From positions 352,001-416,000 of the forward strand of contig CAVTBR010000002.1 of assembly GCA_963733055.1 (NCBI GenBank): a stretch of 64,000 bases of DNA, read 5' to 3'. The translations under genes were made by a program, and so were the position numbers. How positions within the stretch are numbered: the first letter of the stretch is position 1; each line of letters opens with the position of its first letter. Origin of the DNA: Candidatus Bathyarchaeota archaeon (GTDB taxonomy: Archaea > Thermoproteota > Bathyarchaeia > 40CM-2-53-6). The notes below the pieces were generated by a model that was given only the letters and a program-made list of their open reading frames with translations, had not been told where the DNA came from and ran no database searches. Positions 31,527-37,403 of this stretch are shown in pieces.

Positions 31527-32435
31527 CTAGACCGTGCCTTGCCCCGCCATTAGGATGAACGCATCTTCGAGCGTAGGCGGTAATGTCACCACATCGTCTA
31601 CCTCATAGCCACGCTTTGAAAGCAACTTCAAGTCGCTATCCTTGAAACCGAATATGGGATATATTTTGTAGCCTAGTGAAGTCTCTCTGACCAGACCACG
31701 TATTGAGTAAGATCGAAGGGCCTGTCTGAAAACTCTCTGCTTTCGTCCACGGACCTCCTTAATTGCCCCTGATTCACATCTCATCTTTAGCTCGTTGACA
31801 GTTCCTTGAGCTATGAACCTACCACTGCAGATAAACCCAACCCTGTCCGCAATAGCCTCAACATCGTCGGCAATGTGGCTAGTCATAATTATTGTGCGAT
31901 CTTCACCTTTCAGGTCCTCAATGATTTCTATCAGCTCACGTCTGAAAATCGGGTCGACTCCATATCCCGGCTCATCGAGGATCAGGAGTTGAGGGTCTGC
32001 AAGAAGGGTAATCATGATTTCCAGTTTCCTCCGCATGCCCGGCGAGTAATACCGAACCAGCTCTCTTGAACGCTCAAGCAATCCGATCCTCTTTAACAGT
32101 TCGCGGCCTCTTTCACGAACAAACGACCCCGGTAGTCCATAGATTCGACCGTAGAAGCTTAGATTCTCCTGAGCGGTGAGATAGAAAAGTACGCTGGACC
32201 ATTGCGGCAAATAACCTATACCGCTTAGACCGGGCATAACCTCTTTGTTGTCTATGAACACCTCGCCTTTTGTTGGTCTCATAACGCCGGCTATTATTGA
32301 GGCCAAAGTTGATTTCCCTGAACCATTCGGACCCATGATCGCAAAAGTTTCTCTCTCTGCGATAGTCAGACTAACCTCATCCAGTACCAGTTTGTCGCGA
32401 AAGCTCTTCGAGACGTCGACTATCGAGAGATTCAT
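31527..32435 (-). CDS. ABC exporter ATP-binding subunit (TOMM cluster)
   Basis: GPNGSGKST, YSPGM, LLILDEP, SH. Confidence 0.93.
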   Translation of the reverse strand: MNLSIVDVSKSFRDKLVLDEVSLTIAERETFAIMGPNGSGKSTLASIIAGVMRPTKGEVFIDNKEVMPGLSGIGYLPQWSSVLFYLTAQENLSFYGRIYGLPGSFVRERGRELLKRIGLLERSRELVRYYSPGMRRKLEIMITLLADPQLLILDEPGYGVDPIFRRELIEIIEDLKGEDRTIIMTSHIADDVEAIADRVGFICSGRFIAQGTVNELKMRCESGAIKEVRGRKQRVFRQALRSYSIRGLVRETSLGYKIYPIFGFKDSDLKLLSKRGYEVDDVVTLPPTLEDAFILMAGQGTV

Positions 32436-33088
32436 TCGTATCTCGTCTTCATCTGGAGATGAATGAGTAGATTATATAGGGCATGAGCGAAACTCGAAAC
32501 TATGAAACTGCCGGAGAGAATGAATAAAATCGAGTAGAACCAGCCGTCAATTGTCTTGAATAGGATTTCCTTCACGCCGAAAACGTAGTGTATTGTTCCA
32601 AAACTCAACGCGGACAATATCAGGGAAAGGATTGTCGGCACGTGAAGGCTTAGAAGAGCGGTGATGAACGTTCCCCTCCAGAGGAATTCCTCCATAACAG
32701 GGGTAATCATTACCGTCAATGTTTGGTTTTTCTGCGGATAGTATGTTACATGTCTGATGTTTTGTTCACAGACTGGTAATTGAGCTCGCACGACGCAATA
32801 GAGGAGAAATAACAGGGCTCCAACGATTAAGCCAACAGGTATCCAGAGAGGTAGCGTCGGCTCTAAACCAATTATTGATAGAAATTGGTTGCTGGAAAGC
32901 GCGATTGAACTCAACAGCATCAATGGAATCATCAAAATCATGTGAATTAGGACTGAATGCGTGAACAAGATCTTCAGCACTCTTGTGATAGGGAGTCCGA
33001 TGAGGCTCAAGCTCAATTTGATGGATTGGAAGCTAGTCCAACTGTATGCTGGAAAAGCGAGCAAGACGAAAATTATAGTAGGATTCAT
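32432..33088 (-). CDS. CPBP/Abi (CAAX-like) intramembrane metalloprotease, SagE-like
   Basis: EEFLWRG, FGTIH and HALYN motifs. Confidence 0.9.
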   Translation of the reverse strand: MNPTIIFVLLAFPAYSWTSFQSIKLSLSLIGLPITRVLKILFTHSVLIHMILMIPLMLLSSIALSSNQFLSIIGLEPTLPLWIPVGLIVGALLFLLYCVVRAQLPVCEQNIRHVTYYPQKNQTLTVMITPVMEEFLWRGTFITALLSLHVPTILSLILSALSFGTIHYVFGVKEILFKTIDGWFYSILFILSGSFIVSSFAHALYNLLIHLQMKTRYE

Positions 33089-33099
33089 GCTTGATACGA

Positions 33100-34386
33100 C
33101 TAAGGATATGGGTGTGGCATAGTATTCTTCGATCCGCTCAGTCGAGGATTACCAAGAAACGGACTGGATGGAAGGCACAGCGACACTAGCTGTGGGCAGA
33201 AGACTTTGACGACTTTGTAGCCTGTGTCTTCGAGACCGGGAAGCGTGGAGTCGAAGACAAGTGCCTCGGTATTCGCATTCCTTAGTTGTTGAGCTACCGC
33301 CGTCAAATCGCGCTCTGCATCTCCACAACTATAAGTTTTCAGCTCGTTAAGCTCTACGCTTCTGCATGAATGCAGAAGAAATGAAAGGTGTTCAAAGTTT
33401 TGCGGTCGCGCATAGAAAACACCGTTCAACTCAAAGTCAAAGAGTCTCTCGGGGTCTATTCGCTCATTATGATGAATGAGGTTCTGTGCTTTGGCGAATG
33501 GAATACTTTGTGCAGCTTCCAGTAACGACTTGTAACAAGTCTCGATGGGATCAAGACTGGCAGAACCCGCCACTAACGCGTTTGGAAGAAGAAATTGTTC
33601 GTTCAAGACGCATGACATAGTTACATACATGTTGGGTAACGCAGAGGAAAGCAGAAATAACTTGTACTGGAACCCTTTGTTTCCAATCCGCTTCAGGATC
33701 CCGTGCAATTCCTGTGTGTGTTCAAAGTTAAGACTTGGGGGGCTCTCCTTACAATACCACGTCCTCATGACAGCATCGCGTTCAATCGCCTCACAGAGGC
33801 CCTTTAAAGTCGCCGAGGAATAGGAACGAGCTGCGGCAGCTCCAGAAGACGTCGTTGGAGAGATTAGCGGTTCTCCGGCTGCCCTTTTGTATCCCAAGTA
33901 GATTAGTTGCGCAGGAACATAGACTTCCCGCTCTGAAACCAACGATAATCCTTTAACCCAGCCTAAGAGAGTGTCGTTTCTAGCACGACGAAATGGAAAG
34001 TCAGGATAGGCGTATTGCGTTTCTGAGAACAATGGGATCATTTCGGGGGAAATTGCGTTTTCTGCTTTCTCGGTCAGTTTATCGTACGTCGAAAATAAGA
34101 TGCAGTCGTGAACTGCTTCGCAGTAGTTCAAAAGGCTGTACCGCTCAAGAAGTTCGCCCATGGCTCGTCGAATGGCTTCCCGTAGTGAGACCCCCGCACC
34201 GCCACACCGTAACGATCCAGCGGCTTTCTGAGTTTCGCTCTCTTCAATAACGACATTGAAAATGTCAGGATCATCGAAGTCTAAGAGAACTTCAAATAGG
34301 CCCTTTCCTAAGCCTGTATATTCTCCAATCAGGCGGAGAAGGGGCTGACTGCGAAAATCATCATTCTTATTGATCGTTATTTGCAC
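33100..34386 (-). CDS. ycaO: YcaO cyclodehydratase (SagD-like)
   Basis: GELLERYS, TSSGAAA, EAIERDA ATP-binding motifs; C-terminal PHPYP typical of azoline-forming YcaO; probable GTG start at 34386. Confidence 0.93.
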   Translation of the reverse strand: MQITINKNDDFRSQPLLRLIGEYTGLGKGLFEVLLDFDDPDIFNVVIEESETQKAAGSLRCGGAGVSLREAIRRAMGELLERYSLLNYCEAVHDCILFSTYDKLTEKAENAISPEMIPLFSETQYAYPDFPFRRARNDTLLGWVKGLSLVSEREVYVPAQLIYLGYKRAAGEPLISPTTSSGAAAARSYSSATLKGLCEAIERDAVMRTWYCKESPPSLNFEHTQELHGILKRIGNKGFQYKLFLLSSALPNMYVTMSCVLNEQFLLPNALVAGSASLDPIETCYKSLLEAAQSIPFAKAQNLIHHNERIDPERLFDFELNGVFYARPQNFEHLSFLLHSCRSVELNELKTYSCGDAERDLTAVAQQLRNANTEALVFDSTLPGLEDTGYKVVKVFCPQLVSLCLPSSPFLGNPRLSGSKNTMPHPYP

Positions 34387-36296: not shown

Positions 36297-37129
36297 TATC
36301 GGTACTCAGCTCCTTTTCGCAATACTACTAGCGTGTAGATGTATGTCCCCGTCAAAAACGTCACAACGGAAGACAGACCAACATATAGCAAGGTTTGCAT
36401 ATGAACGGTTGTTCTTCCTTCCACGAGCAGACTTGTCAATATATCCATGGCTACAGTAGACGGAAAGTTCGCTGAAGCTTGAAACCAGGCAGGCAGATTG
36501 GTCGTAGGTACCAGAAGCCCCGTCGAGAAGGCGATGATGACCACAAGAGCGTTGCTCAATGAGAAAGCTGACTGTCCCGTCTTGGCGAAGGAGCCGATGA
36601 TTAAACCAATCCCAGAAGAAAAGACATCAACGAAAACTACTATCAGGAATACCAAAGGAAGAACAGTCCAACTGTTGACGACAAATGTGGCACCAGTGAT
36701 GAGAGCGACACTAAATAGGACCGCGCTCAGAAAAGTACCAAAAATGACCCACCCAATCGTCCTTCCACATAGCTCCTGCCAAGGTCTAAGCGGCGTTGAT
36801 AGGAGCTTGAAGTACAAGCCACTTTGCCTGTCTGTGGCCACGCCTCCTGAAACGCCTGAAGATCCGACAGCTAGAAATCCAAAGATGACCATAATTATGG
36901 CAAACTGCGCCTTCAACGATCCTTGTGTCTGCTTAGGAAGCTCAAGCAAATTACCGGAAGAGTAGACGACAAGAAAATAGAACATCAGAATCCAGAAGAA
37001 ATTGAAGAAGAGAGCAACCCTGATCCGGAATATCTCTCTGATAGTGCGCTCTGCAAACGCCAAAATCGGCCGGAAAAGATCGCCCCTTGCTGTCCTATTC
37101 GACTTGCCAAGCAAGAATCCCACGCACAC
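36296..37129 (-). CDS. ABC-2 type permease (TOMM cluster)
   Basis: Six TM helices, DR..G.Y.KL..TPL motif; TAATG overlap with SagB-like gene. Confidence 0.88.
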   Translation of the reverse strand: MCVGFLLGKSNRTARGDLFRPILAFAERTIREIFRIRVALFFNFFWILMFYFLVVYSSGNLLELPKQTQGSLKAQFAIIMVIFGFLAVGSSGVSGGVATDRQSGLYFKLLSTPLRPWQELCGRTIGWVIFGTFLSAVLFSVALITGATFVVNSWTVLPLVFLIVVFVDVFSSGIGLIIGSFAKTGQSAFSLSNALVVIIAFSTGLLVPTTNLPAWFQASANFPSTVAMDILTSLLVEGRTTVHMQTLLYVGLSSVVTFLTGTYIYTLVVLRKGAEYR

Positions 37130-37211
37130 TATTCAAGGGGAATCACTATCACTTCTCATGACAGTGCAAGAGAGGACGGGAATAAGTAAGCGAGTAATGA
37201 CTTTTCAGTAC

Positions 37212-37403
37212 CTAAAAGATGTCACAGGTTACAAATATTCCCGTTTTCGGCGCGGGAAAGCACTTTAACGGTTCGGGCCCCGAATCGAGTCCGGCTGAAC
37301 AGCAACTACCGATGCATCCAATGCAACAACAACACGCCGGATACGAAACATTAGCCCCACTTGGCGACTCTCTCAACGCCACTAATTTGGTTAGGATTTT
37401 CAT
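37212..37403 (-). CDS. TOMM precursor peptide, streptolysin-S-like (63 aa)
   Basis: MKILTKLVALRESPSGANVSYPA-CCCCIGCIGSCCSAG-LDSGPEPLKCFPAPKTGIFVTCDIF; first gene of the co-oriented cluster. Confidence 0.85.
   Translation of the reverse strand: MKILTKLVALRESPSGANVSYPACCCCIGCIGSCCSAGLDSGPEPLKCFPAPKTGIFVTCDIF

Follow-up and report, generated by a model that had tools for sequence, protein, structure and literature searches.

Archaeal gene clusters for thiazole/oxazole-modified microcins (TOMMs) have been catalogued since 2008–2015 and, to our knowledge, after a search of the literature, no azole-containing ribosomal peptide from an archaeon has been chemically characterized. A survey by Cox et al. 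2015 (PMC4603692) reports a TOMM cluster for 35% of the sequenced archaea that it covered and describes two archaeal families known only from genomes, the thermoacidophisins of Sulfolobus and the haloazolisins of haloarchaea. The same survey lists as components of the streptolysin S (SLS)-like cytolysin family a discrete C protein and D protein, a SagB dehydrogenase, a CPBP/CaaX-like protease, and an ABC transporter; it characterizes the core peptide by a Gly followed by at least 10 contiguous heterocyclizable residues, and the isofunctional group of cytolysin D proteins by BLAST E-values of about 1e-54 to its members (Cox et al. 2015, PMC4603692). Here, we analyzed a 64,000-nt stretch of DNA (hereafter, the window; all coordinates refer to it) from contig CAVTBR010000002.1 (positions 352,001–416,000, forward strand) of the Candidatus Bathyarchaeota archaeon assembly GCA_963733055.1. 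Its minus strand carries a gene cluster (31527–37403) that, judged from sequence, is very likely a functional, horizontally acquired operon for a linear azole-containing peptide (LAP), with the component list and much of the layout of the SLS-like systems.

Based on the reading of open reading frames (ORFs) in the window, the cluster consists of seven co-oriented, tightly packed ORFs spanning 5.9 kb. In order of transcription they encode a precursor peptide, an ABC-2 type permease, a SagB-type flavin mononucleotide (FMN) dehydrogenase (B protein), an E1-like partner (C protein), a YcaO cyclodehydratase (D protein), a CPBP (CAAX/Rce1-like) intramembrane protease, and a DrrA-like ABC transporter ATPase. 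An 82-nt gap separates the precursor gene from the permease gene, followed by overlaps of 1 nt (permease/B), 23 nt (B/C), and 20 nt (C/D), an 11-nt gap between D and the CPBP gene, and a final 4-nt overlap (CPBP/ATPase); the arrangement is that of a tight operon in which stops and starts overlap. Window translations and family searches showed that all seven frames are open and that the catalytic motifs are intact. The first-pass annotation of this DNA had described seven co-oriented, mostly overlapping genes at these positions and read them as a complete TOMM/LAP cluster. Both statements held: six of the genes have family matches, and the azoline-type YcaO, its E1-like partner, and the SagB dehydrogenase are all there, as are a CPBP protease and an ABC exporter. 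Every enzyme of the cluster is of a known kind, and no new enzymology is involved.

The precursor gene (37212–37403, minus strand) encodes a 63-aa peptide from ATG 37403, MKILTKLVALRESPSGANVSYPACCCCIGCIGSCCSAGLDSGPEPLKCFPAPKTGIFVTCDIF, in which the leader is predicted to comprise about residues 1–23 and the core residues 24–63. This putative core contains 9 Cys, 3 Ser, and 2 Thr, and the whole 63-residue precursor has 1 Tyr and 6 Gly. Its heterocyclizable runs reach at most 4 residues (CCCC and SCCS), the first of them preceded by Pro-Ala rather than Gly, and the core also has two isolated Cys (C48 and C60) and a long C-terminal tail without heterocyclizable runs. When stop-to-stop ORFs of ≥40 aa in the 2.88-Mb genome (n = 36,987) were ranked by Cys density, the precursor, with 7 Cys within 13 residues, tied for the highest value (2 ORFs reach 7 per 13 residues, and 10 reach 6). 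This extreme density, together with a location on the strand of the enzymes, 82 nt upstream of them, places the precursor far beyond chance expectation. Pfam and NCBIfam searches of the peptide gave no match, and the ORF reading of the intergenic spaces of the cluster found no other Cys/Ser/Thr-rich ORF. A longer 90-aa reading from GTG 37484 was rejected because a natural variant (described below) has non-triplet indels, deletions of 2, 1, and 1 nt, at 37478–37491, upstream of the precursor ATG.

Our comparison with the cytolysin family rests on one member, the SLS-like cluster on plasmid lp28-8 of Borreliella valaisiana VS116 (NC_012169.1; locus L036). The full list of SLS-like components is also present in the window cluster, the gene order B-C-D-CPBP is identical to that of Borreliella, and in both loci a small precursor, encoded upstream, has consecutive Cys at the start of its core. 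Between the two loci, the D proteins are 24.9% identical (95.9 bits; E 4.6e-23, in a small database; 80 bits by tblastn), the C proteins 25.5% over 145 residues, and the B proteins 34.3%, and there is no BLAST match between the CPBP proteins. The longest heterocyclizable run comprises 10 residues in the Borreliella ORF versus 4 in the window precursor, and, unlike the Borreliella cluster, the window cluster has a core with a long C-terminal tail and resides in an archaeal host. It further differs from the SLS type in having one ABC-2 permease, located between the precursor and B, that scores 19.6 bits with the SagH model against a cut-off of 450. The parallel with streptolysin S drawn in the first-pass annotation therefore stands for the layout and the components, including the shared B-C-D-CPBP order, but not for membership in the cytolysin family, given a D protein with 24.9% identity and runs of 4 residues. 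By the sequence criteria applied to this one member, the cluster is SLS-like in layout and lies outside the cytolysin family.

The two archaeal families were compared by their descriptions in the available part of the survey (PMC4603692). Like the window cluster, thermoacidophisins have discrete C and D proteins, a B protein, ABC transporters, and signs of horizontal spread, whereas the description there gives them Tyr/Gly-rich precursors and does not mention a CaaX protease; the window precursor is Cys-rich. Haloazolisins have fused, N-terminally truncated cyclodehydratases and mostly Ser-rich cores according to the same text, in contrast to the discrete C and D proteins and the Cys-rich core of the window cluster. 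Neither description, so far as it was available, fits the window cluster. Three genomes of the same phylum (G140, G397, and G349) encode D proteins that are 25–26% identical to that of the window and form a separate clade in a quick tree (see below). A search of full-text literature, in which the large surveys are only partly covered, found no paper describing such a cluster in Bathyarchaeia, in agreement with the earlier statement that none was known to have been characterized from such archaea.

The D protein (33100–34386, minus strand; 428 aa) exceeds the cut-off of the SagD model TIGR03604 (244.1 bits; cut-off 219.25) and stays far under that of the thioamidation model TIGR03266 (71.9 bits; cut-off 365). 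Its start is most likely GTG 34386 rather than TTG 34506, because the nine nearest homologues begin there and the exact 428-aa protein is on record in the protein collection; the 468-aa form from TTG 34506 (33100–34506) was rejected on the same grounds. A profile built from the window YcaO and nine relatives found its best Protein Data Bank (PDB) matches in the cyanobactin heterocyclases TruD (4bs9; 121 bits), MusD (7u58; 120.6 bits), and LynD (4v1t; 110.5 bits), with lower scores for the MJ1094 protein (86.6 bits) and the 6ci7 YcaO (80.5 bits), both of which we take to be thioamide-forming, and for McbD (27 bits). The three heterocyclases are also the best structure matches of the C-protein profile: the D match extends over the whole YcaO domain, and the C match over the N-terminal half with the RiPP recognition element (RRE) and the E1-like domain. 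Compared to the window proteins, they differ in having C and D fused in one chain and in belonging to macrocyclic cyanobactin pathways with other tailoring enzymes, and identity to them is low.

The motifs GE..ER and E..ERD and the C-terminal P-H-P are invariant in all 10 aligned YcaO sequences (E118, E121, R122, E239, E242, R243, D244, P464, H465, and P466), and the two acidic motifs align with the corresponding motifs of TruD. Acidic YcaO motifs bind nucleotide and metal (Mg), and a Pro-rich (PxPxP) C-terminal end marks azoline-forming YcaOs; the window protein ends in PHPYP. Its genome (96% complete) has neither a TfuA (PF07812) match nor a second YcaO, which, together with the score below the model cut-off, separates it from the thioamide-forming systems (TfuA-dependent; McrA-glycine). 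These sequence features group the YcaO with azoline-forming enzymes, the type that had been read from its PHPYP end, and the check for a thioamide-clade enzyme that the first-pass annotation had suggested came out on the same side: the thioamidation model stays below its cut-off, TfuA is missing, and the tree places the protein far from the standalone YcaOs of other Bathyarchaeia.

The C protein (34367–35374, minus strand; 335 aa) matches ThiF at 37.4 bits (cut-off 28.1), and its profile matches the N-terminal half of TruD (E 5e-6) and MccB (5e-5), as well as LynD and MusD (5e-6 to 3.5e-4 in the cyanobactin heterocyclases). Both CxxC pairs (C211/C214 and C299/C302) are invariant in the four sequences aligned, which suggests that the protein probably carries a Cys4 zinc site. 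Taken together, the ThiF score, the TruD and MccB matches, and the CxxC pairs agree with the earlier assignment of this gene as the E1-like partner. The first ~100 residues align with the leader-binding domain of TruD and LynD (residues ~50–100 with domain 1). In an AlphaFold model, residues 41–95 have a predicted local distance difference test (pLDDT) score of 71–85 and form the succession strand, helix, strand, helix, helix, strand; when the three strands that precede this stretch are included, three strands are followed by three helices. Because the protein scores below the cut-offs of both TOMM C-protein models (see below), its N-terminal leader-binding RRE domain is putative, though likely.

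The dehydrogenase (35352–36296, minus strand; 314 aa) matches the SagB model TIGR03605 at 149.6 bits (cut-off 78.4) beside a Nitroreductase match of 91 bits, and its PDB matches include SagB-type/CyaGox and McbC. The KY pair of the enzyme lies in the stretch NRVKYGERGYRY and aligns with PKYG of the BmdC oxidase, so that the intact KY noted in the first reading of the gene was recovered. Upstream, the permease (36296–37129, minus strand; 277 aa) matches PF01061 at 54.3 bits (cut-off 26.9), with further matches to PF12698 (42.3 bits) and DrrB-like models beside the weak SagH match, and may be the membrane half of a putative exporter/immunity pump. The ATPase at the other end of the operon (31527–32435, minus strand; 302 aa) matches ABC_tran at 91.4 bits and scores 200 bits with TIGR01188 (drrA) and 162.3 bits with a lantibiotic-protection ABC model, both under their cut-offs; its translation contains the Walker A motif GPNGSGKST and the Walker B motif LLILDEP. 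The CPBP protease (32432–33088, minus strand; 218 aa; PF02517 52.5 bits, cut-off 22.4) has the three CPBP motifs intact in its translation (EEFLWR, FGTIH, and HALYN) and is a candidate leader peptidase and/or immunity protein.

A search of 5.8 billion proteins for relatives of the D and C proteins gave three near relatives of D (P0001–P0003; 49–52% identity), after which identity drops to ≤33%; P0050 is a further YcaO relative among those listed. NCBI records for the 43–52% identical relatives are MEM3554662.1, MEM4114948.1, and MEM3415345.1, and P0001 and P0003 trace to ENA and Logan contigs. One of the near relatives is named ‘MAG: Saccharolobus sp.’ (MAG, metagenome-assembled genome), and a member of that protein's cluster is named ‘Thermoproteota archaeon’. 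Only four relatives of the C protein were found beyond itself, including P0175 and P0176 (46% and 43% identical), which are encoded on contigs sized like those of two D relatives (8051 and 4163 nt). This suggests that the C and D genes are linked in those relatives too. A scan of genome contigs with the D protein alone found no loci of close relatives, and with the D alignment it found 4 loci, all haloarchaeal (25–32% identity), while a scan of metagenome contigs gave 7 loci (25–28% identity). Among 400 genomes sampled across the phylum, the best non-self match of the D protein reached 87.6 bits versus 783 bits for itself.

In a quick maximum-likelihood tree, supported only by the Shimodaira–Hasegawa-like approximate likelihood ratio test (SH-aLRT), the window D protein and P0001–P0003 form a fully supported clade. 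Together with haloarchaeal clades and one clade of metagenomic proteins, this clade is nested in a moderately supported group (SH-aLRT 89), into which the SLS-like D protein of Borreliella also falls, on a long, unreliable branch. Two of the related loci, one from a Halobacteriales MAG (L004) and one from a metagenome (L008), share the order permease, ATPase, B, C, D, and their products are 37–39% (B), 24% (C), and 32% and 29% (D) identical to the window proteins. About 90 nt upstream of the permease gene, each has a conserved small ORF on the opposite strand that encodes 32–35 aa with five consecutive Cys (L004: 6010–6117, minus strand; L008: 6013–6111, minus strand). We regard these ORFs, on their sequence and position, as a candidate unannotated precursor family, and their presence in both loci indicates that poly-Cys precursors recur with this archaeal C/D branch. 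Unlike the window precursor, these ORFs are divergently oriented, are 32–35 aa in size, and have no long tail, and there is no CPBP match in the two loci.

Within the class, the SagD cut-off was passed by this genome alone among 401 sampled genomes, and six others had weaker YcaO matches. The two best of these six are standalone YcaOs without SagB or ThiF neighbors and fall on the far side of the tree from the window D protein. Their genes lie at 6931–8728 of L050 (G042:C1) and 7182–8447 of L049 (G438:C2); in one of the two loci, the YcaO gene is followed by one for a DUF483 protein and preceded by two for double-ABC ATPases.

The host, an uncultured archaeon of peat or soil, belongs to Bathyarchaeia, in line with the Bathyarchaeia-like archaea named in the first reading: the genome carries an archaeal 16S gene, and 13 of the 16 EF-2 relatives with an organism name are Bathyarchaeia or Bathyarchaeota. 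A binning artefact is unlikely because the cluster lies on a 535-kb contig with native genes on either side. The cluster YcaO was found in none of 22 genomes of the same genus, nor in the rest of the family, and DNA of the interval 31049–37789 had no match in the 15 same-genus genomes searched, whereas genes on both flanks did match. The GC content of the cluster (47.3%) is lower than the genome mean (50.6%) and corresponds to the 3.6th percentile of 6-kb windows. Adjoining the cluster, and outside the pathway, is a 435-aa ORF (29785–31092, plus strand) that has no Pfam or NCBIfam match but is a probable tyrosine recombinase by protein language-model similarity, with Phage_integrase clusters as its look-alikes (score 0.95, a lead only); an 86% identical fragment of this protein occurs in one same-genus genome. 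Absence of the YcaO from the same-genus genomes searched, low GC content, the lack of DNA matches of the kind seen for the flanks, and the integrase-like neighbor agree with the earlier description of the cluster as an acquired island.

No tRNA gene was found in the window, and no convincing direct repeats flank the 29–38 kb region, in which only imperfect pairs of 14–20 nt were detected. An empty site could not be defined in four same-genus loci, where synteny is scrambled; with the window at 27–29 kb they share only the gene for an M50 protease, plus a rearranged P-type ATPase gene in one of them. Because nothing else is common to these relatives, the exact borders of the island are undefined. 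The shared gene (27751–29013, plus strand) encodes an M50 site-2 protease with CBS domains and a zinc ribbon. Several paralogues occur per genome across the genus, with 67–76% DNA identity between this gene and the genus copies, and a second copy lies on contig C1 of its own genome.

On the other side, 230 nt upstream of the precursor gene and on the same strand, is a gene for a 446-aa secreted protease-like protein (37636–38976, minus strand) with hydrophobic N- and C-terminal segments and a weak subtilase match (18.4 bits, below the cut-off). This S8/S53-like gene was rejected as a member of the cluster since it has DNA matches in several same-genus genomes that have no cluster; it is probably a resident gene, and its product may take part in extracellular leader removal. 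Further away, positions 1–20000 of the window have a GC content of 55.8% (99.5th percentile of the genome) and contain two genes for MT-A70 methyltransferases, of which one carries a fused GP88 domain, a gene for an N6/N4 DNA methylase, and many ORFs without family match. This part of the window looks like a second foreign element, viral or plasmid-like, beside a variable region. At 22039–23007 (plus strand), amid ORFs without family match, one ORF joins an Mrr-type restriction endonuclease domain to a zinc ribbon at its C-terminus, a context that fits a variable defense/mobile region. A 266-aa ORF at 44318–45118 (minus strand) matches only positions 198–438 of the 438-position Peptidase_C1_2 model and may be an aminopeptidase C-like gene that is split or has lost its N-terminal part.

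In the pathway that we propose for the operon, the 63-residue precursor would be made first, and the C protein would bind its leader (about residues 1–23) through its N-terminal domain. The C/D complex would then use ATP to convert up to 9 core Cys, and possibly 5 Ser/Thr, into thiazolines and oxazolines, and the SagB-type FMN dehydrogenase would oxidize these azolines to azoles. The CPBP membrane protease may cut off the leader near residue 23/24 and/or shield the producer, and the DrrAB-like ABC-2 transporter would export the product. This product would most likely be an antagonistic, membrane- or target-directed peptide acting against neighboring microbes in peat or soil.

An azole- or thiol-rich peptide with a non-antagonistic role in metal binding, redox buffering, or signaling, which the pump merely secretes, is an unlikely alternative to this antagonistic product, although it is the one that survives best. 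The core does keep the isolated C48 and C60 and the long tail without heterocyclizable runs, the surrounding genes of the window encode ion transporters and stress proteins (P-type ATPase, CLC, Na/H exchanger, MscS, and Usp), and the activity of the product is itself a prediction. However, these ion-transport genes lie outside the island, and the cluster is strain-specific and mobile, as would be expected of antagonism genes. Moreover, the pairing of a CPBP protease with a DrrAB-like pump is typical of self-protection against a toxic product in bacteriocin loci.

Natural variation bears on whether the operon is maintained. DNA of the cluster is present, in parts, in contigs of all four public sequencing runs compared, which come from four studies and sample peat, soil, a bioreactor, and freshwater. 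Two of these runs (peat, 2017; freshwater, 2022) contain the same variant allele of the precursor region. In this allele, two insertions (4 and 2 nt) that lie five bases from each other lengthen the ORF by exactly two codons, so that it stays open at 65 aa, all 9 Cys are kept, and residues 22–35, the Cys-rich block, are identical. There are three synonymous third-position changes (P43, A51, and P52) and five replacements (Y21F, S36A, E44A, K47G, and F49A), all of them outside the Cys block, and a 5-nt indel at 37165 falls within the 82-nt spacer between the precursor and permease genes. Among the differences listed across the cluster, 16 codons changed synonymously and 14 non-synonymously (37 further differences lie outside this count); in the B gene, four of the five listed differences are synonymous. 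The cluster is apparently under selection.

These variants also argue against the still less probable reading of the operon as a passenger that arrived recently and is silent or decaying, or of the Cys-rich ORF as something other than its substrate. Such a reading would accommodate a precursor without homologue, and two further results are compatible with it but weigh neither way: none of the 18 runs listed for the stretch is an RNA run, which says nothing for or against expression, and a complex prediction for the C protein (4-row alignment) with the precursor gave no verdict (score 0.01 versus a mark of 0.32). Against it stand seven open frames with intact catalytic motifs, natural variants enriched in synonymous changes with indels in the ORF that keep the frame, and intergenic spaces that offer no other Cys/Ser/Thr-rich ORF. 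That the YcaO carries out some other chemistry of its family, be it on this substrate or a different one (formation of thioamides or amidines, or modification of a protein), is very improbable, since the versatility of YcaO enzymes and the standalone YcaOs of other Bathyarchaeia, found without B or C partners, are outweighed by the contrasting TIGR03266 and TIGR03604 scores, a genome without TfuA, the translational coupling of the YcaO gene to those of an E1-like partner and a SagB dehydrogenase, and the distance between the window D protein and the standalone enzymes in the tree.

Several results weigh against a functional LAP operon. The cluster is known here from its genes, and its chemistry, expression, and activity are predictions. 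A phmmer search among 1.84 billion predicted-protein representatives found no homologue of the precursor; the sole match (P0053) was judged spurious, being a repeat protein of 1,125 aa that aligns five times with one short stretch of the leader. The precursor ORF itself is also without a match in that set, which suggests that gene callers missed it. The C protein falls below the cut-offs of both TOMM C-protein models (TIGR03882: 32.2 bits, cut-off 36.9; TIGR03603: 43.9 bits, cut-off 187.65), and its AlphaFold model is poor overall (mean pLDDT 49.9), with confidence only at residues 41–95. Finally, the variant contigs are shallow (depth 2.6–5.8), but a sequencing error is an unlikely source of the variant allele because the same allele occurs in two studies.

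Bathyarchaeia are abundant, mostly uncultured archaea of sediment and peat, and their means of competition are essentially unknown. The cluster described here may belong to an undescribed archaeal family of poly-Cys azole peptides, with three to four relatives in Thermoproteota and, more distantly, clusters of the Halobacteriales type, that moves between phyla on integrative elements. In its fullest form, this proposal would give streptolysin S a first counterpart among archaea: a membrane-active poly-thiazole archaeocin, cleaved from its leader, against which the CPBP protease and the ABC-2 pump protect the producer; we hold the whole proposal only tentatively, as less likely than not. The presence of an SLS-type layout (precursor, B, C, D, CPBP protease, and ABC pump) on mobile archaeal DNA widens the known range of this layout. 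Compact, complete, and apparently subject to selection, the cluster makes a practical choice for heterologous expression, and its product is a candidate for the first characterized archaeal azole peptide.

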